From: Chloroflexi bacterium UBA4730
GTDB lineage: Bacteria > Chloroflexota > Limnocylindria > P2-11E
Assembly (NCBI GenBank): GCA_002404155.1
Contig: DHJC01000015.1
Coordinates: 100,887-164,886, forward strand
DNA: 64,000 bases
Reading direction: 5' to 3'
In this document: positions 52,228 to 63,430 of the stretch, piece by piece
Layout of the letters: the number at the start of each line of letters is the position of its first letter
How positions within the stretch are numbered: position 1 is the stretch's first letter
Made by a program: the position numbers and the translations under genes
The notes under the pieces: generated by a model
Database searches by the model: none
What the model was told of the DNA's origin: nothing
The model's input: the letters and a program-made list of their open reading frames with translations, nothing else

Positions 52228-52892
52228 CCGAGCTTGTAGCCGACACCGCGCACGTTCGCGGGCACCGGCGCGCCCGCAGCCTCGAGCTTGGAGCGCAGCC
52301 GCGCGAGGTGGGCTTTCAGCCACTCCGGGTCGGGATCGCGCTCGTCGGGCCAGCCGGCACGAAGGAGCGACTTGCGATCCACGAGCTCGCCGGGGTGCGC
52401 GGCGAGCGCCGCGAGCAGCCGGAACTCCGTCGGCGTGAGCGGCAGCTCCGCTCCACCCATCCGCGCGCTGTGGGCCCGCGTGTCGATGCGCAGGCCGCCG
52501 ATGTCCGTCGACGTGGCCGGGCCGGTGCTGCGCGGTGCCCGGCGAAGCAACGCCCGCACGCGCGCGAGGAGCTCCTTGCGGCCGAATGGCTTCTCCAGGT
52601 AGTCGTCGGCGCCGAGGTCGAGGAGCTTCACGCGCTCGTCCTCGCCTTTCTCGCCGGTGAGCATCAGGATCGGCGTCGGCGCGATCGCCCGGATCCGTTT
52701 GCAGATCTCATCGCCGCTCATCTTGGGCAGGCGGCGATCGAGGATGACCAGGTCCGGCAGCTCCTCGGCGTGCCGGCGGAGCGCGGTCTCACCGTCGTAC
52801 GCGGTGAGCAGGTCGTAGCCTTCCGCGCCCAAGAGCGACGCGACCATCCCGACGAGCGCCCGGTCGTCGTCGACGATGAGGACGCTGGTCAT
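52224..52892 (-). CDS. OmpR-family response regulator
   Basis: Receiver MTSVLIVDDD...DLVILDRRLPKMSG and a winged-helix C-terminus (VRGVGYKL). ATGA overlap with the kinase stop. Confidence 0.9.
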   Translation of the reverse strand: MTSVLIVDDDRALVGMVASLLGAEGYDLLTAYDGETALRRHAEELPDLVILDRRLPKMSGDEICKRIRAIAPTPILMLTGEKGEDERVKLLDLGADDYLEKPFGRKELLARVRALLRRAPRSTGPATSTDIGGLRIDTRAHSARMGGAELPLTPTEFRLLAALAAHPGELVDRKSLLRAGWPDERDPDPEWLKAHLARLRSKLEAAGAPVPANVRGVGYKLG

Positions 52893-54556
52893 CGCTCCTC
52901 GCCTCGCGCGAGCGGCACGCTGAAGGCGAAGACGCTGCCGGCCTCGCCGTTCGACCGATCCTCGTACCAGAGCGCGCCGCCCTGGGCCTCGGCCACGCGC
53001 CGGCAAGAGAAGAGCCCGATCCCCGCACCGGAGATCTCGTCCGTGCCGAGGCGGACGAACGGTTCGAAGATGCGCCGGCGGTCCTCCGGAGGCACACCGG
53101 ATCCTTCGTCGGCGACGCGGACGATCGCGCGCTCCTTCTCCTTCGCCACCGTGACGGCGATCGCCGTCCCGGTGGGCGCGTACTTCGTGGCGTTGTGCAC
53201 GAGCCCGGCGACGACCTCGGCCGTCCGGCGCTTGTCTCCCCGAGCCCAGAGCGGCGCGCCCGCGCGCGGGCCGCGCAGGGTGTGCTTGCGGGCCATCGGC
53301 CCCATCTCGCGCACCGCGCTCACCAGTCCGGCGCGCAGGTCGAAGCGCGTGCGGCGGACATTGATGTCCGGACGATCGTCCTTGACCGAGGCGAGGATCC
53401 GGTCGACGAGCTGATCGAGCCGCTCGACCTGCGCGGAGGCCTCGGCGAGCCGCAGCTGGTGGCCGTTCTTGCTCTTCCGGGTCTGCTCCGCGAAGAGGTC
53501 CAGGTAGCCGCGGACGACCGACAGCGGCGTACGCAGATCGTGGGTGACGACGGCGACGAAGTCCGAGCGCGCGCGATCGAGCTCGCGCAGGCGCTCGGAG
53601 GTCCTGCGCTCGAGCGCATAGAGGGAGGCCTTGTCGATCGCGAGCGCGGCCTGGTTCGCGAGCGCGCCGACGAACGCCGCCTCGGTCTCGGCGAATTCGG
53701 TGTGACCCGGCACATGGAGCGCGACCGCGCCGACGAGCCGGTCGCCGGCGATGAGCGGCAGCGCGAGGCCGTCAGGGGAGACGACCGGGCGGGTCTCGGC
53801 GAGGGCCGTCCGCGCCGCCGCGAGCGCGGACCGCGGGAGCGCGCCGGAGCTCGCACGCAACACCGCTTCGCCGGTCTCGTCGCGCAGCAGGATGCCGCCC
53901 GAGGCGCCCGGATACACGCGCACGAGCCGGTCGACGACCAGGCCGAGCACCTCGTCAAGCTCCAGCGTCGAGGTGAGGACGTTGGAGACCTCGAAGAGCG
54001 CGGAGACCTCGCGGAGCTTGCGCTCGGCGTCGCGTTGCAGCCGGCTCTTCTCGATGATGCCGGCGACCTGGTTGGCGATGGTCTGCAGGAAATCGATCTC
54101 GCCGCGCTCGAACTCGCGCAGCTCGACGGTCTGGACGTTCATCACGCCGATGACCTCGTCGCGGATGACGAGGGGCACGCTGAGCATCGAGGTGAAGCGG
54201 TCGACGTCGACCGAGGGCACGACCTTCCACCGCGGTTCCGCGTGGACGTCGCGCACGGTGAGCGGGACGCGCGCGTTCGCGACCCAGCCGGTAATGCCCT
54301 CGCCGAGGCGCAGCGTCGCCTTGCCGATCGCGCGCGGATTCAGACCGTTGCTCGCGACAAGGCGCAGGAGCCCATCGCGCCTCTCGACGAGGTAGAGGGA
54401 CGAGACCTCCGCGTGCATCGCGTCGGTCGTTCGATCGATGACGATGCGCAGCATCTCGTCCCAATCGCGTGTCGAGGACGCGAGCTGCGCGATCTCACGA
54501 AGGAACGACAGCTCGGAGAGTTTCCGTTGGGTATCGGTGTCCGAAGGTGCCGTCAT
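52889..54556 (-). CDS. sensor histidine kinase with two GAF domains
   Basis: Two GAF-like segments, an H box (FVAVVTHDLRTPL), and N/G boxes (LVHNATKYAP, GAGIGLF). Start at ATG 54556 preferred over 54577, which would leave only 8 nt to the divergent gene. Confidence 0.85.
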   Translation of the reverse strand: MTAPSDTDTQRKLSELSFLREIAQLASSTRDWDEMLRIVIDRTTDAMHAEVSSLYLVERRDGLLRLVASNGLNPRAIGKATLRLGEGITGWVANARVPLTVRDVHAEPRWKVVPSVDVDRFTSMLSVPLVIRDEVIGVMNVQTVELREFERGEIDFLQTIANQVAGIIEKSRLQRDAERKLREVSALFEVSNVLTSTLELDEVLGLVVDRLVRVYPGASGGILLRDETGEAVLRASSGALPRSALAAARTALAETRPVVSPDGLALPLIAGDRLVGAVALHVPGHTEFAETEAAFVGALANQAALAIDKASLYALERRTSERLRELDRARSDFVAVVTHDLRTPLSVVRGYLDLFAEQTRKSKNGHQLRLAEASAQVERLDQLVDRILASVKDDRPDINVRRTRFDLRAGLVSAVREMGPMARKHTLRGPRAGAPLWARGDKRRTAEVVAGLVHNATKYAPTGTAIAVTVAKEKERAIVRVADEGSGVPPEDRRRIFEPFVRLGTDEISGAGIGLFSCRRVAEAQGGALWYEDRSNGEAGSVFAFSVPLARGEER

Positions 54557-54585
54557 CGCTGAATGATAGAAATACACTCGCGCCG

Positions 54586-56321: not shown

Positions 56322-57978
56322 TCAGGGCGTGGGTGGCGGTGTGCGCCCACGCGGCGTCCCACTCGGGGACGGCCGCGGGGCCGGGCTCGCGCCGCTCGGC
56401 CGAGGTACGGGCGTCCCGCGCGGGGCCGGCTGGGCCGCACTGTCGCGATCGTCGGGATAGGAGCGCGGCCCGGCGATCTCCACGGTGACGGTCTGGGTGT
56501 CGCTCACGCTCTTTCCCGCCTCACGCAGCTCGATCGCGAGCTTGTACGTGCCGCGGAGCGCCGGCGCGATCAACACGGAGTAGAACGTCCCGCTGCCCGT
56601 GCCGGTGCTCGCACCGAGCGGCGAGCTGCCGGAGGCGACGCTCTTGCTCGTCGCCGGGTCGATGGCCCGCCAGAACAACGCGTACGCGTGCGGGTCGCTG
56701 CCGGCCGCGGGCAGATTCGAGTACTGCACGACGACCAGCGTGGCCTCGCTGCGATGGAGCAGCTGCGGCACGCGGGCGATCGACATGACGAGGAATGCGA
56801 CGTGCACGTGGAAGGTGAACGAGCCGGTCGCGGCGCCCGCCGCCGCGAGCGCGTTGCCGTTGGCGTCCGTGAGGCCGACGGTCAGGGTGTAGTCGCCGAC
56901 CGCCGCGGGCGCGGAGAACGCGAGGTTCACCGCCGACGTCGCAGCGGGTGCCAGCGCCGGAAGCGGGATCGGCGCCGGCGCTGAGGAGACGAGCTTCTTC
57001 GTCGCGTCGCGGATGTCCCAGCTGAGCTTGACGCTGCCGGCGCCGCTCGCGGTCCAGGCCTTCGTCCCGGAGTTCGTGACCTGCATCGGCAGCGTCTGCG
57101 TAGAGCCCGCGTCGTACGCGAGGGCAGTCACCGGAAGGCGGTACCGGGCGTTCGCCGGCGGCTCGAGGACGGCGGCGTACACGAGCGCGCCGAGGCCGCC
57201 GAGGAAGTGGATGGCCTCCTCTTCGTCGCCGTTCGCCGTCATGCCGACGACGACGCGCGGACCGGATGGCGTGTAGATGATCCCGGCGTCGTGCGTGGCG
57301 AACCCGAGGTTGCCGGTCTTGTGCGCGACGACCGTGCCGTCCGGCAGCTCCGAGGGGAGCCGGTCGTTGACCTGCTGCCGCTCGAGCCTGGCGAGCATCC
57401 GGTCGGACGCGGCGGCGGACACGAGCTTGCGCTGCGCAAGGAGCGTGAAGTACCGACCGATGACGCGTGCCGTCGCCGTGTTGTCGTCGCTGTCGTCATT
57501 CGCGATGTGGAAGTCGCCGAGCCCGAGCGTCTGCATCGTTGCATTGATGTTGTCCGGCCCGAGCGAACGCCAGAACGCCAGCGCGGTGCCGTTGTCGGAC
57601 ACGGTGATCATCGCCTCGAGCGCCTCGTCGACGGTCATGACGGTGCCGGCGAGCTCGTACGAGCCGTCGTCGGTGATGTCCTCGGGCTGGATCTCGATGG
57701 TGTCGGTGTACCTCAGCGTGCCGGCATCGACGAGGCTCTCCACGTGGGCCAGGATCCCGAGCTTGTACAGCGAGGCGCTGATGAATGCGACGTTGTCGTC
57801 GTGGGTGTAGAGCGGCTGCGGCGCGAGCGGGTCGGCGATGTACACGCCGGAGTCACCGGGGGAACGACGTGACCAGCCCGTCGACCTGGATCACGAGGTC
57901 CGCCGTCGAGGCGGTGCTCGGGCCGGCGAGCGTCCCGAGCACCACGAAGATCGCCAGGCCGACCGCGAGCCCCCGCAT
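56322..57978 (-). pseudogene. class A beta-lactamase-related serine hydrolase with C-terminal Ig-like domains, interrupted by a frameshift at a G5/C5 run
   Basis: Catalytic motifs S-x-x-K (SASLYK), SDN and KTG (HKTGN) lie in ORF 56322..57845. The signal peptide MRGLAVGLAIFVVLGTLAG... lies in ORF 57853..58134, in another frame. Removing one C from TTCCCCCGG (plus strand GGGGG 57858-57862) joins ...VTSFP-GDSGVYIADP.... Confidence 0.7.
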
Positions 57979-58012: not shown

Positions 58013-58417
58013 TCACCCGCGCGATGCTGCCACGGCGTCCGCGGTCGCGGCAGTCCCGAGGCGCACCATTTCGCGGTATCCGGCCGGTGTCTCGTCCTCG
58101 AATCCGAGGAGGTGGAGGGCGCCGTGGGCGGCAAGGAAGGCGATCTCGCGAACGAGTGGCCGCTTCCGGCGCTTCGCCTGCCGCTGGGCCTGGGCCGCGC
58201 TGATCACGATGTCACCGACGTCGAGCTCGCCGTCGGCGTCACGGGTCAGCTGTCGTGCGGCCCGCTCGCCCTTCGCCCGCCCGACGGACTGCCCAAAGGC
58301 GAGCACGTCGGTCGTCCGATCCTTCTTCCGGTAGCGGCGGTTGAGTGCGCGCATGTCCTCATCGCGAACGAAGGCCACGGTGATCCGGGCATCGGCCGGC
58401 AGCGCGTACGGCTTCAC
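58013..58417 (-). CDS. ybeY: rRNA maturation endoribonuclease YbeY
   Basis: Zinc motif HGALHLLGFED. Confidence 0.9.
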   Translation of the reverse strand: MKPYALPADARITVAFVRDEDMRALNRRYRKKDRTTDVLAFGQSVGRAKGERAARQLTRDADGELDVGDIVISAAQAQRQAKRRKRPLVREIAFLAAHGALHLLGFEDETPAGYREMVRLGTAATADAVAASRG

Positions 58418-58482: not shown

Positions 58483-60600
58483 TCAGGTGCCGGAGGCGCT
58501 CGTCGGAGGCGTCGCCGCCGGGGGCAGTCGGGCGATCCGATCCTCGGGATACGGGATCCGCTCGTGGTACACGCCCGCGAGCAGCTCGCGGAACGCTTCC
58601 TTCACGCGCTGCACGTCGCGGAGGGTAAGGTCGCAGTCGTCGAGCTGTCCGTCCGCGACCTTCTCGCTAACGATGCGCTCGACCATCTCGCTGATCTGTT
58701 CGGGCGTCTTCTCCTCGAGGGAGCGCACGGCGGCCTCGGTGCCGTCGGCGAGCATCACGATCCCCGCCTCCTTGCTGCGCGGCTTGGGGCCGGGATGGCG
58801 GAAGGCGGCCTCGTCCACGACCAGGCCGCGCTGCTGCGCGAGGGTATGGAAGAACCGGATGAGGCTCGTGCCGTGATGGCCCGGGATGATCTCGCGGATC
58901 TGCGGCGGGAGGCGATAACGGTCGGCCAGCGCGAGGCCGTCGCGGACGTGCGCTGAGACGATGCTCGCCGACACCGCCGGATCGAGCTCGTCGTGCGGGT
59001 TCGTCCCGGTCTGGTTCTCGATGAACGCGAGCGGGTTCCGCATCTTCCCGATGTCGTGGTAGTACGCGCCGACCCGCGCGACGAGCGGATCAGCCCCGAT
59101 GACCTCGGCCGCGCGCTCGGAGAGGTTCGCGACGAGCAGGGAATGGTGATACGTCCCGGGCGTCCGCAGCAGGAGCTGGCGGAGCAACGGATGGTTCGGG
59201 TCGGAGAGCTCGCGCAGCTCGAACACGGTCGTGATCCGGAACAGGTGGCCGAGCATGACGATCGCGCCGAACGCGAGCACGCCCGACGCGACGCCGCTGA
59301 TGAGCGCGGCGGCCGCGAGCTGCAGCGCGCCCAGCGTGTCGGCCGAGCGGCCGACGAACAGGAACGTCGCGATGACGCCGAGGTCGCCCAGCGCGACGTA
59401 GAGGGCCGCGGCCACGAACTCCCGGGCGGTGGTCGCCTGCCGGACCGCGGCCATGCCCAGAAGCGCAGGGACGAGCACGTACGCGACGAGCTCGACCTGC
59501 CCGGACATGATGCCGACGTGGAGCGCGCCCGCGATCTGGGTCGCGAGCGCGGTGCGCCCGCCCACAAGGATCGTCAGCATCATCGCGACCGCGGCGAACG
59601 GCACGAAGTACACGGCGACGATGTGTCCGGGGATGAGCGCGCGCCCCGCGGCCGTGATGACGACGAGGGACAGCGCCACGACCATGAGCTTGCGGTCATC
59701 GGCCCACGCCTCCTCGGCGTAGCGCTCGACGAAGAGCGCGACGACGCCGGCGATCAGGAGGGCCCAGCTCAGCAACCCGATGGCGCTCTTCCAGTCCGTG
59801 CCGGGATTCACGAGGCCGAGCGCGCGGAGCTTCTCGAGATCCTGCTCGGTCACGACCTGGCCGTCGCGCACGACGATCTCACCAGCGGTGACCTGCACCT
59901 GGACCGGCGCGACGTTGTCGCGCGCGGTCTGCTGCGCCGCGGCCGTGGCGTTCGCGTCGAAGCTGAGGTTCGCCTGCACGCTCTGCTTCAGCAGCTCCGC
60001 GCCGATCCGCTTCTGGCGGTCGGTCCAGGCGGGGGGCAGGGCCTTCGTCGTGTCGGCCCGCTGCGCGTCGAGCTGCTCGGGCCTGATGCCCTGCTGATAG
60101 ATCGTCCGCAGTGCCGGATCGAGCTCCTTGCTCAGCTGGTCGAACTCGGCCGCGGTCATGTCGAGCGCGTCCGTGGCCAGCGGCACGCTGAGTGCGACCT
60201 CGCTCAGCTTCGTGAGCGCCGCGATCCGCTGGTCGCGCGGCAGCGTCGCGTCGCCGCGCACCCGGGCGATGCCGGTGAGCGCGGCCTGGAGGTGCGAACT
60301 CGAGGTCACGACGACGGCCGGATCCGCGGCGTACACGCGCTGGACCGCCGCCGCGGCCTTGTCCCGCTCGATCTGGCTCAGCGCCTCCGAGGAGAAGGCC
60401 GTGGAGTGCGGCGCGCGGACGTCGCGATCCGCGACCACGCCCGCTTCGCCATAGGACCCGACCGCCGATGGGAACAACAGGGCGACCGCGCTGAGCAGGC
60501 CGGTGGCGATGACGAACGCCACGATGCGGACCCGCGGGTCGGCCTGGACCAGGGCGCGCACGTCCGCGAGCGACCGGGAACGAGGCACGAACCGGATCAT
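58483..60600 (-). CDS. 7TM-HD (HDIG) membrane phosphohydrolase, PgpH/YqfF-like
   Basis: 705 aa with an extracellular N-domain, seven hydrophobic helices and an HD domain (HSLLVANL...YYHDIGK). Sits in the conserved phoH-...-ybeY context. Confidence 0.85.
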   Translation of the reverse strand: MIRFVPRSRSLADVRALVQADPRVRIVAFVIATGLLSAVALLFPSAVGSYGEAGVVADRDVRAPHSTAFSSEALSQIERDKAAAAVQRVYAADPAVVVTSSSHLQAALTGIARVRGDATLPRDQRIAALTKLSEVALSVPLATDALDMTAAEFDQLSKELDPALRTIYQQGIRPEQLDAQRADTTKALPPAWTDRQKRIGAELLKQSVQANLSFDANATAAAQQTARDNVAPVQVQVTAGEIVVRDGQVVTEQDLEKLRALGLVNPGTDWKSAIGLLSWALLIAGVVALFVERYAEEAWADDRKLMVVALSLVVITAAGRALIPGHIVAVYFVPFAAVAMMLTILVGGRTALATQIAGALHVGIMSGQVELVAYVLVPALLGMAAVRQATTAREFVAAALYVALGDLGVIATFLFVGRSADTLGALQLAAAALISGVASGVLAFGAIVMLGHLFRITTVFELRELSDPNHPLLRQLLLRTPGTYHHSLLVANLSERAAEVIGADPLVARVGAYYHDIGKMRNPLAFIENQTGTNPHDELDPAVSASIVSAHVRDGLALADRYRLPPQIREIIPGHHGTSLIRFFHTLAQQRGLVVDEAAFRHPGPKPRSKEAGIVMLADGTEAAVRSLEEKTPEQISEMVERIVSEKVADGQLDDCDLTLRDVQRVKEAFRELLAGVYHERIPYPEDRIARLPPAATPPTSASGT

Positions 60601-62642
60601 TCGGGCGACCTCTCGTGCCGATCGTACGCGTGCACGATCCGCGCGACGAGCGCGTGTCGGACGACGTCTCGTTCGTCGAAATCGACGAAGGAGATGCCTT
60701 CCACGCCCCGCAGGATCTCCCGCGCGACGGCCATCCCGGACTTTTGTCCCTCCACGAGATCGACCTGCGTGACGTCCCCGGTGACGACGGCCTGCGATCC
60801 GTAGCCGAGGCGGGTCAGGAACATCTTCATCTGCGGCGCTGTGGTGTTCTGCGCCTCGTCCAGGATGATGAACGCCTCATTAAGGGTGTTGTGCGTCACC
60901 AGGAAGTCCTCCGTGACATACAACGAGTCCCCGGCCGCGACACGAATACAGACCGTCTCCTGCTCCCCGGCCGGCGCGATGCTGTCGATGAATCGCATCG
61001 GACGGCCGCCGCCGGTCACGTTGTACAACTCGAGCTTCTGAGTCAACCGGAACGGGGCGATGCCTTCGGGAAGGCGGATATCGAGGACGTACGAATCGGA
61101 GCGATAGCCGACTTCTCGCCCACGGGCCCGGCCCGGAGTCCGACCGGCGGCGAGTCGCTTCCTCCAGTAGGCCACGCCGCCCAACGACCGCACGAGGAAG
61201 AGGACGTCGTCCTTCAACTGCTCCGACGCGGTCGAGTACTGGACCCTGCAAGTCCGCTCGCGTTGCGTCACCGGCCCGCCGTCGGTATCGAGCAGCCCTT
61301 GTAGGACGGCGAGCCGCGTGGCAGACGAGTTGAACAGGTACGAGGCAGGCACGAACGTCGTGCTCGAGCGGGTCCCGGCAACGCCCAACTCGCGCAGGGT
61401 CGCGGTCGCTGGATTCGCCATGATCACGCCGCCACGGCCGCCGCCGCCGCTCCGGCGCAGTACGTAGTCGAGGTCCGACTTCCGAGCCAACTCGATCCCG
61501 GGAGGTGCCATCTCAAGCGCGAGGGCGAGTTCCGGGTCGGCGGTCGTGAACGTCGGAGTGGTCGTTGTCGTGATGCACCCATCCCCGAGCAGACGTCCGA
61601 GCGCGTACGGATCCATCGGGACGGCGCGAGCCTTCAGTTCGACCGGTCGGGAGACGAGGGGCAGCTCGAAGCGGTGGTAGTGCGCGGAACGCAGTCGCCC
61701 GATCATGTCGCGCGTCTCGACAATGCGCATCGGCTTCCCGCGCGAGCGGTCCTCGCGGGTCGCGACCGCCCAGAGGTGGTCCGCACAGCAGAGCGTCGAC
61801 GCTCCGTCTTGGGTGGCGAGGCGGTACACCGGCTTGCGTCCTTGCGGATAGACGCCGACGACCGCGGTCGGGGATCCGTCCGACCCGATGACGAGGTCGC
61901 CGACGGCGAGACTCCCTATCGTTCGGAAACCCGACGGCGTGACAACATTGCTGAGCACGGGTTGCGCGCGACCCCGCATGTAGGCGAGCGGCGCGACCTC
62001 GATCTCGCCGCGCTCCTGCGCGCGGGCCATGCGCTCCGCGGGCATGAGCTCGTACAGCGCGTCGTACAGCGGCCGGAGGTACGGATCGATCTTCTCCTGA
62101 AGGTCGCCGGGAAGGAAACCGAGGCGCTCGCCGGCCTCGACGGCGGGCCGAGTCAGGATCAGCCGCGTGACCTTGCGCTCGCGCAGCGCGTTCACGCCCA
62201 TCGCAACAGCCAAATAACTTTTTCCCGTGCCCGCCACACCTGTCGCGAACACGAGGTCGTAGGCGCGGATCGCCTCGACGTAACGGCGCTGGTTCTCCGA
62301 TTGCGGCGCGATCCGTTTCCCGGTGACCGTGGTCGCGACGTGCTCGCGAAGCTGCTGCGGGGTCGCGACCGGCGCTTCCTTCGCGTCGCCGATGAGCCGC
62401 TCGAGGGCCGGCCGGCGCAGGTTGTCGTCGCGACCCGACAGCGAGCGCATCGCGCCGACGAGGTCGCCGACGCGCGCGACGGACGCGGGGTCGCCGCTGA
62501 TCCGGAGCTCAGCCCCGCGCGCGACGATCTTCACGCCGAACTCGCGCTCGATGCGGTCGATGTTCGTCTCGTTCTGGCCGGCGACGAACATCATCTCGTC
62601 GGGGTCGGGGATGAGGATCGTGATCTGCTGCGCCTGCGCCAT
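60597..62642 (-). CDS. phoH: PhoH-like ATPase precursor containing an intein
   Basis: Walker A GVAGTGKS. The sequence ...APLAYMRGR is followed by a 360-aa insert, then TLNEAFIILDEAQNTT (Walker B). The extein halves are contiguous in canonical PhoH. Confidence 0.9.
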   Translation of the reverse strand: MAQAQQITILIPDPDEMMFVAGQNETNIDRIEREFGVKIVARGAELRISGDPASVARVGDLVGAMRSLSGRDDNLRRPALERLIGDAKEAPVATPQQLREHVATTVTGKRIAPQSENQRRYVEAIRAYDLVFATGVAGTGKSYLAVAMGVNALRERKVTRLILTRPAVEAGERLGFLPGDLQEKIDPYLRPLYDALYELMPAERMARAQERGEIEVAPLAYMRGRAQPVLSNVVTPSGFRTIGSLAVGDLVIGSDGSPTAVVGVYPQGRKPVYRLATQDGASTLCCADHLWAVATREDRSRGKPMRIVETRDMIGRLRSAHYHRFELPLVSRPVELKARAVPMDPYALGRLLGDGCITTTTTPTFTTADPELALALEMAPPGIELARKSDLDYVLRRSGGGGRGGVIMANPATATLRELGVAGTRSSTTFVPASYLFNSSATRLAVLQGLLDTDGGPVTQRERTCRVQYSTASEQLKDDVLFLVRSLGGVAYWRKRLAAGRTPGRARGREVGYRSDSYVLDIRLPEGIAPFRLTQKLELYNVTGGGRPMRFIDSIAPAGEQETVCIRVAAGDSLYVTEDFLVTHNTLNEAFIILDEAQNTTAPQMKMFLTRLGYGSQAVVTGDVTQVDLVEGQKSGMAVAREILRGVEGISFVDFDERDVVRHALVARIVHAYDRHERSPE
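60888..61967 (-). mobile_element. intein (360 aa) with double-motif LAGLIDADG homing endonuclease; class-3-like splicing residues
   Basis: Begins with Ala (AQPVLSNVVTPSG...) and ends ...FLVTHN, followed by Thr (+1). Block B-like CADHLW, block F-like ETVCIRV, block G THN. LAGLIDADG motifs are LGRLLGDGC and LQGLLDTDGG. A/T-richer codons than the flanks. Confidence 0.85.
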
Positions 62643-63052
62643 TACGCCTTCGGTCTGAGCAGCTCGCTCACGACGCGCGAGACCATCCCGCCATCCGCCT
62701 GGCCCTTGAGCTCGGGCATGAGCTTCTGCATGACCTTGCCCTGCTCCTTCGGGCCGGTCGCGCCCGTCTCCGCGATCGCGCGCTGCGCGGCCGCGCGCAC
62801 GGTCGCCTCGTCGAGCTGCTTCGGAAGGTAGGACTCGAGGATCTCGAGCTCCTTCGTCTCCTTCGCCGCGAGCTCGGGTCGGTCGCCCTTGGTGAACGCG
62901 TCGATGGATTCGTGGCGCATCTTGGTCTGCTTGCGCAGAACGACCTCGATCGCGGCGTCGTCGAGCTCGGCGCGCTTGGCGACCGCCTCGTTGTGGATGG
63001 CCGCCAGGGCGAAGCGCACGGTGTCACGGCGCGCGACATCCTGGGCCTTCAT
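62642..63052 (-). CDS. GatB/YqeY domain-containing protein
   Basis: 136 aa. DTVRFALAAIHNE...YLPKQL...GKVMQKLMPELKGQADGGMVS is the typical YqeY pattern. Confidence 0.85.
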   Translation of the reverse strand: MKAQDVARRDTVRFALAAIHNEAVAKRAELDDAAIEVVLRKQTKMRHESIDAFTKGDRPELAAKETKELEILESYLPKQLDEATVRAAAQRAIAETGATGPKEQGKVMQKLMPELKGQADGGMVSRVVSELLRPKA

Positions 63053-63107: not shown

Positions 63108-63275
63108 TCAGCGCTTGCGACGCTTGGCTTCCTTGCGCTTGCGTCGCGCCGCGGGGCGCTCGTAGTACTCGCGCCTGCGGGCCTCCGCGAGGATCCCAGC
63201 CTGCTGGATCTTCTTGTTGAACCGGCGCAGGGCAGCCTCGAAGGACTCGCCTTCGCCGATGATCACTTCGGACAT
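63108..63275 (-). CDS. rpsU: 30S ribosomal protein S21
   Basis: ATG 63275 gives [41 protein letters not shown]...KRRKR. Confidence 0.9.
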
Positions 63276-63430
63276 GCGGTCTGTAGGGTCACCCCGCTTT
63301 CGGTCATACAAGACGAAGCCGGCGTACCCCGAGGGCCGCCGACTTTCCGAATGATACGTCCTTCCCGGCGGGCCTAACGGTACAGATACGCACACCTGTA
63401 CCGACCGCAGAATGACGTCCGTGGCAGCCG

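Follow-up and report, generated by a model that had tools for sequence, protein, structure and literature searches.

Class 3 inteins are defined by three features: (i) a non-nucleophilic residue at position 1; (ii) a Trp-Cys-Thr (WCT) triplet at positions 12 of block B (B12), 4 of block F (F4), and 5 of block G (G5); and (iii) Thr or Ser at the +1 position of the downstream extein (Tori et al. 2010, PMC2807308; Kelley et al. 2016, PMC5050341). A thioester-branched intermediate at the block F Cys and an absolute requirement for that Cys have been demonstrated for the MP-Be DnaB, Dra Snf2, and Msm DnaBi1 inteins (PMC2807308, PMC6195587). PhoH is one of the proteins known to host inteins. The tally given by Novikova et al. 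2016 counts it among the intein-containing bacterial proteins, with 21 cases from Actinobacteria and Deinococcus-Thermus (PMC4760082), and in Kelley et al. 2018 (Fig. 6a legend and Methods) the PhoH inteins (PhoHi) of M. fortuitum and M. xenopi stand alongside DnaB inteins in an alignment of class 3 inteins that displays the WCT triplet (PMC6195587). Likewise, Woods et al. 2020 state that M. smegmatis PhoH contains an intein (PMC7360933). Here we report on the phoH gene of Chloroflexi bacterium UBA4730 (Chloroflexota; Limnocylindria), located in a 64,000-nucleotide (nt) stretch of contig DHJC01000015.1 (assembly GCA_002404155.1, forward-strand positions 100,887 to 164,886); this whole stretch is referred to as the window. 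We read the 360-residue insert in its PhoH protein as a class 3 intein of full-length (bipartite) architecture, equipped with a LAGLIDADG homing endonuclease (HEN), that would splice, home, and be of horizontal origin, its mechanism being assigned by homology, and we give this reading a probability of roughly 0.88.

A class 3 PhoH intein at this site is already known in mycobacteria. The PhoH inteins of M. kyorinense, Mycolicibacterium brisbanense, M. porcinum, and Mycobacterium sp. M26 occupy the same position (MRGR/AQP...THN/TLN, with slashes at the junctions) and share with the window intein a length of 357-360 amino acids (aa), the WCT triplet, Ala1, Thr+1, and the LAGLIDADG domain, at 62-67% aa identity; in block B they read A-S-G-D-H-L-W, whereas the window intein reads C-C-A-D-H-L-W. 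As cultured mycobacteria carry an orthologue at the same site, the window intein belongs to a catalogued allele, and from genus, host gene, and class features we infer that this is the allele of the mycobacterial entries in the Fig. 6a legend of Kelley et al. Its host is a member of the Chloroflexota (Limnocylindria), in contrast to the Actinobacteria and Deinococcus-Thermus that make up the 2016 tally (PMC4760082).

Among the class 3 DnaB inteins, Msm DnaBi1 (6BS8), MchDnaB-1 (6RIX/6RIY), and the prototype from mycobacteriophage Bethlehem (MP-Be) share with the window intein an Ala/Pro1-type start, WCT at B12/F4/G5, Thr or Ser at +1, insertion into a P-loop ATPase core, and a HINT region that is 29-34% identical, but they reside in another host protein and at another insertion site. 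The MP-Be DnaB intein is full-length with an endonuclease domain (PMC2807308), as is the window intein, whereas Msm and Mch DnaBi1 are mini-inteins without one. PI-SceI (Sce VMA1), TliVMA, and PI-PfuI likewise combine a HINT domain with an inserted double-motif LAGLIDADG endonuclease, but they are class 1 inteins (Cys1, block F Asp) with 14-17% sequence identity to the window intein, and PI-SceI is ~95 residues longer.

The PhoH insert and its splicing signature

The Pfam PhoH domain of the window protein was found to be broken at aa 226 into two stretches (E 2.6e-86), with LAGLIDADG_3 matched within the insert. The insertion point lies between Arg225 and Thr586 in the P-loop ATPase core, nine residues ahead of the Walker B Asp, and the 360 inserted residues part Walker A (aa 135-142) from Walker B (FIILDE, aa 591-596) in the precursor. 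The insert has the attributes of an intein, i.e., it is in frame, its precise removal restores a PhoH of 321 aa, and it contains blocks A, B, F, and G and a HINT fold. A preliminary description, made from the DNA letters without database searches, had placed an insert of this length between these two residues and just before Walker B; mapping of the open reading frame (ORF) and comparison with an empty-site allele (see below) showed this placement to be exact.

The same description had proposed class 3 splicing on the grounds that the insert begins without a nucleophile, ends in His-Asn followed by Thr (+1), carries the WCT triplet at its defining positions, and contains two LAGLIDADG motifs. 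We recovered all of these features: Ala1; His359-Asn360 ahead of Thr586; Trp66 at B12, Cys340 at F4, and Thr358 at G5, as positioned by alignment to MchDnaB-1 and gp41-1; and two motifs that both retain the catalytic Asp. In intein numbering, the motifs quoted at the time fall at residues 61-66 (CADHLW), 123-131 (LGRLLGDGC), 222-231 (LQGLLDTDGG), 337-343 (ETVCIRV), and 357-360 (VTHN). By its sequence, therefore, with Ala1, Trp66, Cys340, Thr358, and Thr+1 in place, the window intein is of class 3.

Conservation was assessed in an alignment of 107 PhoH-borne intein homologues. Residues H64, W66, C340, T358, H359, and N360 are invariant, as is Tyr350 (Cys340 + 10), the counterpart of the structural Phe330 in the Bethlehem DnaB intein, and at +1 nearly all homologues have Thr, with Ser in 3. 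Ala1 together with Thr+1 would also suit a class 2 (KlbA-like) route, in which Thr+1 attacks the N-terminal junction directly and no Cys340 thioester is formed, as KlbA-type Ala1 inteins do (PMC2807308). We consider that route highly improbable, given that class 2 inteins are without the WCT triplet, which is complete (W66, C340, T358) in 107/107 sequences here, that the nearest sequence relatives include experimentally proven class 3 inteins, and that MP-Be DnaB absolutely needs its block F Cys (PMC2807308).

Residue 1 is Ala in 86 of the homologues and Ser in 21. The Ser1 inteins (P0010, P0049, P0068, P0076, and others), ~20% of PhoH inteins, keep the complete WCT triplet. Residue 1 thereby toggles between nucleophilic and non-nucleophilic states inside one orthologous intein family.

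The closest solved structures by sequence were those of the gp41-1 intein (E 1.5e-11), MchDnaB-1 (6RIX/6RIY; 2e-7), and Msm DnaBi1 (6BS8; 7e-7), and PI-SceI was also matched by sequence in the central region of the insert. More specifically, the His and Trp in block B of MchDnaB-1 (class 3) have His64 and Trp66 as their aligned counterparts, and Cys340 aligns with Asp107 of wild-type gp41-1 (block F position 4) as well as with the engineered D107C of 6RIZ. An AlphaFold2 (AF2) model of the intein, built with 45 homologues, reached a mean pLDDT of 89 and a pTM of 0.89. In Foldseek comparisons, it matched over its full length to PI-SceI (E 1e-18, TMq 0.65-0.71), TliVMA, PhoVMA, and PI-PfuI, and the HINT part alone matched class 3 inteins at 29-34% identity. 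The insert is predicted by this model to adopt a PI-SceI-like bipartite intein fold. Searches with hidden Markov models, which had been suggested as a check, came out divided, with LAGLIDADG_3 above its gathering score and the Hint models sub-threshold. Because the Pfam Hint matches are sub-threshold, the HINT assignment rests on the PDB sequence matches, the AF2/Foldseek results, and block conservation.

By homology to the class 3 inteins studied biochemically, expression of the window gene would proceed as follows. Translation would give a 681-aa precursor, presumably an inactive ATPase in which the intein holds Walker A and B apart. The Cys340 thiol would attack the Arg225-Ala226 peptide bond, generating a thioester-linked block F branched intermediate, from which the N-extein would be transferred to the Thr586 (+1) hydroxyl, generating a block G branched intermediate. 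Asn360 cyclisation, assisted by His359, would then free the intein, and an O-to-N acyl shift would yield the native 321-aa PhoH (...YMRGR-TLNEAF...).

A Cys60-Cys61 dyad (window 61785-61790) stands directly ahead of the block B xxHxW. Of the 107 homologues, 101 have Cys and 6 have Ser at position 61 (B7), and at position 60 there are 88 with Cys and 18 with Ala; at B7, Msm has Asp and MP-Be has Ser, as opposed to Cys in the window intein. Judged from this conservation, Cys61, which would lie next to the catalytic Cys340, might serve as its redox partner. In the M. smegmatis class 3 DnaBi1 intein, both a Cys48-Cys118 disulfide and inhibition by zinc have reportedly been shown. One might extend this to an intein that is not only a parasite but also a post-translational switch for the PhoH/YbeY RNA-quality module, responding to redox state or metals via Cys61 and Cys340, in which oxidation would trap Cys340 in a disulfide and hold PhoH as the inactive precursor; we regard such a role as speculative and rather unlikely.

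Empty-site alleles and horizontal spread

The conceptually spliced 321-aa PhoH served as the query for intein-free relatives. All of the best 120 matches listed were without the insert and 83-99% identical to the query, and the named ones among them were nearly all Candidatus Limnocylindria (a class of Chloroflexota). The best match, P0121, is 321 aa long (= 681 - 360), is 99% identical at the aa level, and precisely lacks the insert. It is carried by a JGI metagenome contig (L001) with the same rpsU-yqeY-phoH-pgpH synteny as the window, and the intein-free loci L082-L084 have the same synteny upstream (yqeY). At the DNA level, L001 aligned with both flanks in the window at 93-96% identity, the unaligned gap being the 1080-nt insert at 60888-61967. 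The empty site of L001 reads …GCTTACATGAGGGGCAGA/ACCCTTAACGAGGCG… (3' side also given as ACCCTTAACGAGGCGTTC), and the ligated exteins of the window read GCCTACATGCGGGGTCGC/ACCCTTAATGAGGCGTTC across the splice site. Thus, alignment with intein-free PhoH orthologues, as the preliminary description had advised, revealed alleles that lack exactly these 360 residues.

The phoH coding sequences of the window and L001 differ at 31/966 nt (96.8% nt identity) and at 3 aa, the start codon among them. As 31 nt differences amount to only 3 aa differences, the exteins of the interrupted allele are still strongly constrained, which argues that functional PhoH is still made and, hence, that the insert must be removed post-translationally. 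We weighed these data against the alternative that the insert is a non-splicing, domesticated domain fixed in PhoH, or that the gene is a pseudogene. Relatives in at least 596 species representatives and purifying selection on the insert would suit a domesticated domain; yet the site is precisely empty in near-identical strains, the insert splits the ATPase core and Walker A from Walker B, all residues needed for excision are invariant, the exteins are still strongly constrained, and the distribution is sporadic across phyla rather than clade-wide. This alternative is hardly credible to us. In particular, the precise empty site in a 99%-identical PhoH argues against the insert being a conserved non-splicing domain of many PhoH proteins, an outcome that the preliminary description had reckoned with.

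To gauge the spread of the intein, we used it alone as a protein query, which retrieved at least 1363 proteins (E <= 1e-3) among 8000 candidates scored; the best 120 listed were PhoH proteins with LAGLIDADG_3, all but two. When GTDB was scanned with each species represented by one genome, at least 599 stretches matched, of which 596 were confirmed, so that PhoH intein relatives are present in at least 596 species-representative genomes. Hosts, given for the best 80, were mostly Actinomycetota. They comprised cultured and other named hosts (Mycobacterium kyorinense, Mycolicibacterium brisbanense, M. porcinum, Gordonia, Lentzea, Micromonospora, Pseudonocardia, Agromyces, and Kribbella) and many metagenome-assembled genomes (MAGs) of Solirubrobacterales, Gaiellaceae, and Thermoleophilia, and there were also two Chloroflexota/Limnocylindria MAGs, one Myxococcales-labelled, and one Planctomycetota-labelled MAG. 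The insertion point was identical in 13/13 inspected loci (including M. kyorinense, M. brisbanense, M. porcinum, Gordonia, Lentzea, and Pseudonocardia), with intein identities of 62-73%.

Ranked by an identity matrix, the closest relatives of the window intein were those in Limnocylindria-type PhoH proteins at 78%, 74%, and 74%, and actinobacterial copies came close behind at 72-73%. In these same pairs, extein identity went from ~94% down to ~63-66% (Actinomycetota), where the intein was at ~70-73%. That the intein is more alike across phyla than its host protein is the pattern to be expected from horizontal spread. Together with the empty-site alleles in near-identical strains, this cross-phylum similarity supports a horizontal gain of the window copy in a lineage where most phoH genes have no intein.

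The preliminary description had likewise suggested horizontal acquisition, but from an insert that it took to be visibly less GC-rich than the exteins. This argument failed, in that GC is 0.675 in the insert versus 0.680 in the exteins and GC at third codon positions (GC3) is 0.83 versus 0.89, and a local GC dip (0.637-0.640, in intervals spanning 60700-61149) takes in the C-extein no less than the intein's 3' end. At 67.5% versus 68.0%, we rejected GC content as evidence of foreign origin; the acquisition itself is supported by the empty-site alleles and the cross-phylum intein similarity.

Next to the insertion point, synonymous differences between the window and L001 are clustered, with 6 within +-24 nt as against 25 nt differences in all over the other 918 nt (Fisher p = 0.003). 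The six junction changes are (window/L001) GCC/GCT, CGG/AGG, GGT/GGC, CGC/AGA (two changes), and AAT/AAC. Such a cluster is compatible with co-conversion of extein flanks during homing, or with variation of the target site. Of the empty alleles, the two closest read AGG/AGA-GGC/GGA-AGA at codons -3 to -1, with rare AGR Arg codons, and two more distant empty alleles read CGG-GGT-CGC, as in the window. Because these distant empty alleles share the window codons and intein-bearing alleles show both styles, the codon pattern is non-diagnostic for co-conversion or for endonuclease 'immunity' of empty alleles. In two empty Limnocylindria phoH genes (L083:2176-2184 and L084:2176-2184), positions +1 to +3 encode Thr-Leu-Ser (ACG CTC TCG) instead of Thr-Leu-Asn, an amino-acid change within the presumed endonuclease target.

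Relatives of the intein were also found in phages, namely, in the terminase of mycobacteriophages Phrappuccino/Settecandela and in jumbo-phage helicases. They align over aa 1-360, endonuclease included, at 33-40% identity, but the genes that host them are others (terminase, SNF2/DnaB-type helicases). Among the matches listed, none was a copy of the window intein in a phage PhoH. Full-length phage relatives at this level of identity fit the proposal that phages are a reservoir of class 3 inteins (PMC5050341).

The endonuclease domain of the window copy

The LAGLIDADG_3 match (E 7e-8) scored 33 bits versus a cut-off of 22.5, and Foldseek matched the fold of the endonuclease domain to PI-SceI, I-DmoI, and I-Tsp061I. 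Two Asp-Gly motifs and the modelled fold identify it, on sequence and structure prediction, as a double-motif monomeric LAGLIDADG endonuclease. Family-wide, the excised intein would act as a monomer (Asp129, Asp229) that cuts intein-free phoH at the insertion point, and double-strand-break repair would copy the intein into the cut allele. Ratios of nonsynonymous to synonymous divergence (dN/dS; Nei-Gojobori) were calculated for 81-87 pairs of related loci whose proteins are 80-98% identical. The medians, 0.065 in the splicing domain and 0.12 in the endonuclease domain, show purifying selection on both. The latter value indicates that the endonuclease is kept by selection across the family.

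The window copy itself carries an unusual residue. Intein position 125, in the first LAGLIDADG helix, is Arg here only (CGT, window 61593-61595) and Leu in 106/107 homologues; Arg125 recurs in a 100%-identical fragment (P0001). Moreover, the window copy deviates at 6 of the >=95%-conserved columns, a count that ties the highest and lies in the upper tail of the family distribution. Splicing might be intact in this copy even if its endonuclease has lost activity or is in decay, leaving the intein a stranded passenger that is vertically inherited and no longer homes. Besides L125R and the number of deviations, the closest full-length intein relative is just 78% identical, so that nothing hints at a close donor from which the intein spread very recently. 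Set against this are both catalytic Asp residues and the Gly following each, which are intact; the freedom of the window copy from frameshifts, deletions, and stops; the confident AF2 fold of the endonuclease domain; the low dN/dS of that domain family-wide; and the intein-free allele at 96.8% nt identity, which, together with the clustered synonymous changes at the junction, points to a recent gain. We regard an inactive endonuclease as a real possibility for this copy, although not as the probable state.

Five points weigh against our reading of the insert as a splicing and homing class 3 intein. First, the curated Pfam Hint models score weakly (Hom_end_hint E 0.005, Hint_2 E 0.12). Second, with Ser1 in 21/107 homologues, the first residue is not uniformly non-nucleophilic across the family, the window copy having Ala. 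Third, splicing and the block F intermediate of the PhoH intein are assigned by analogy with homologous inteins. Fourth, the phrase 'PhoH intein' occurred in no paper of the searchable literature, and no PhoH intein biochemistry was found there. Fifth, L125R and the 6 deviations suggest that the endonuclease of the window copy may be impaired.

The phoH locus and the meaning of the find

The preliminary description had set the element in a phoH-pgpH-ybeY operon, and Pfam matches confirmed this setting. The genes S21, YqeY, PhoH, 7TM-HD (PgpH-like), and YbeY follow one another in this order on the minus strand; the phoH start overlaps the yqeY stop (TAATG), and the phoH stop overlaps the pgpH start (ATGA). 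Coordinates are compiled in Table 1.

Table 1. Features of the interrupted phoH gene, its intein, and neighboring genes (window coordinates unless stated otherwise)
Feature	Position	Strand	Basis
phoH (ybeZ-type PhoH ATPase) precursor ORF, 681 aa + stop	60597..62642	-	ORF list; Pfam PhoH E 2.6e-86
N-extein, aa 1-225, C-terminal ...APLAYMRGR	61968..62642	-	colinear with intein-free alleles P0121/L001
Walker A GVAGTGKS, aa 135-142	62217-62240	-	inside N-extein
Intein, 360 aa, precursor aa 226-585, Ala1 to Asn360	60888..61967	-	exact gap versus empty-site allele L001
Ala1 codon (GCN)	61965-61967	-	
Block B core CADHLW: Cys61 (B7), His64 (B10), Trp66 (B12, W of WCT)	61770..61787	-	His64, Trp66 in 107/107 homologues
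LAGLIDADG homing-endonuclease domain, ~intein aa 106-321	61005..61652	-	Pfam LAGLIDADG_3; Foldseek PI-SceI
First motif ALGRLLGDG, intein aa 122-130, catalytic Asp129, unusual Arg125	61578..61604	-	Asp129 in 106/107
Second motif LQGLLDTDG, intein aa 222-230, catalytic Asp229	61278..61304	-	Asp227, Asp229, Gly230 in 107/107
Block F core ETVCIRV, Cys340 (F4, C of WCT), predicted initiating nucleophile	60939..60959	-	Cys340 in 107/107
Block G + C-terminal junction: Val357-Thr358(G5)-His359-Asn360 / Thr586 (+1)	60885..60899	-	T, H, N in 107/107
Thr586 (+1) codon ACC	60885-60887	-	
C-extein, aa 586-681 + stop, N-terminal TLNEAFIILDEAQNTT	60597..60887	-	
Walker B FIILDE, aa 591-596	60855-60872	-	inside C-extein
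Junction-flanking extein DNA compared	60861-60911 and 61944-61991 versus L001:1473-1520		
Upstream yqeY (GatB/YqeY domain protein)	62642..63052	-	Pfam YqeY E 1.6e-41
Downstream 7TM-HD (PgpH-like) protein, 705 aa	58483..60600	-	Pfam 7TMR-HDED, 7TM-7TMR_HD, HD
Downstream ybeY (endoribonuclease)	58013..58417	-	Pfam YbeY E 1.2e-27

The S21 ORF (63108-63395, minus strand) is listed at 95 aa from a GTG, with a Pfam match to residues 43-95 only, and its relatives are called at 55-66 aa; the true start probably lies downstream of the listed GTG. Downstream of ybeY, and unrelated to the intein, are genes for a 507-aa Beta-lactamase2 family domain protein (56322-57845, minus strand) and a 562-aa GAF-domain histidine kinase (52889-54577, minus strand). 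A tblastn search of the intein against the whole window returned itself only and no second copy. Elsewhere, the intein-bearing PhoH P0117 (557 aa, on a 550 kb ENA contig) ends C-terminally in a YbeY domain according to its precomputed Pfam annotation (PF02130), which suggests either a phoH-ybeY fusion or a miscalled gene without the intervening pgpH.

For intein biology the find is an ordinary one, i.e., another copy of the catalogued class 3 PhoH intein. The preliminary description had held the element to be noteworthy whether or not its insertion site had been catalogued; with a PhoH intein at this site already on record, it is less so. Its unusual splicing mechanism was nonetheless correctly diagnosed from sequence alone. 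The modest extras are the Chloroflexota host, the filled/empty pair, the cluster of synonymous changes at the junction, and L125R. What goes beyond the cited papers is the host phylum, the scale of the family at no fewer than 596 species representatives, and the pair of filled and empty alleles. The documented hosts of the PhoH intein allele are extended from Actinobacteria and Deinococcus-Thermus, as tallied in 2016, to Chloroflexota (Limnocylindria). The widespread PhoH intein family offers an easy target for biochemistry, and the window and L001, as a natural filled/empty pair, provide a substrate for testing class 3 homing and co-conversion.

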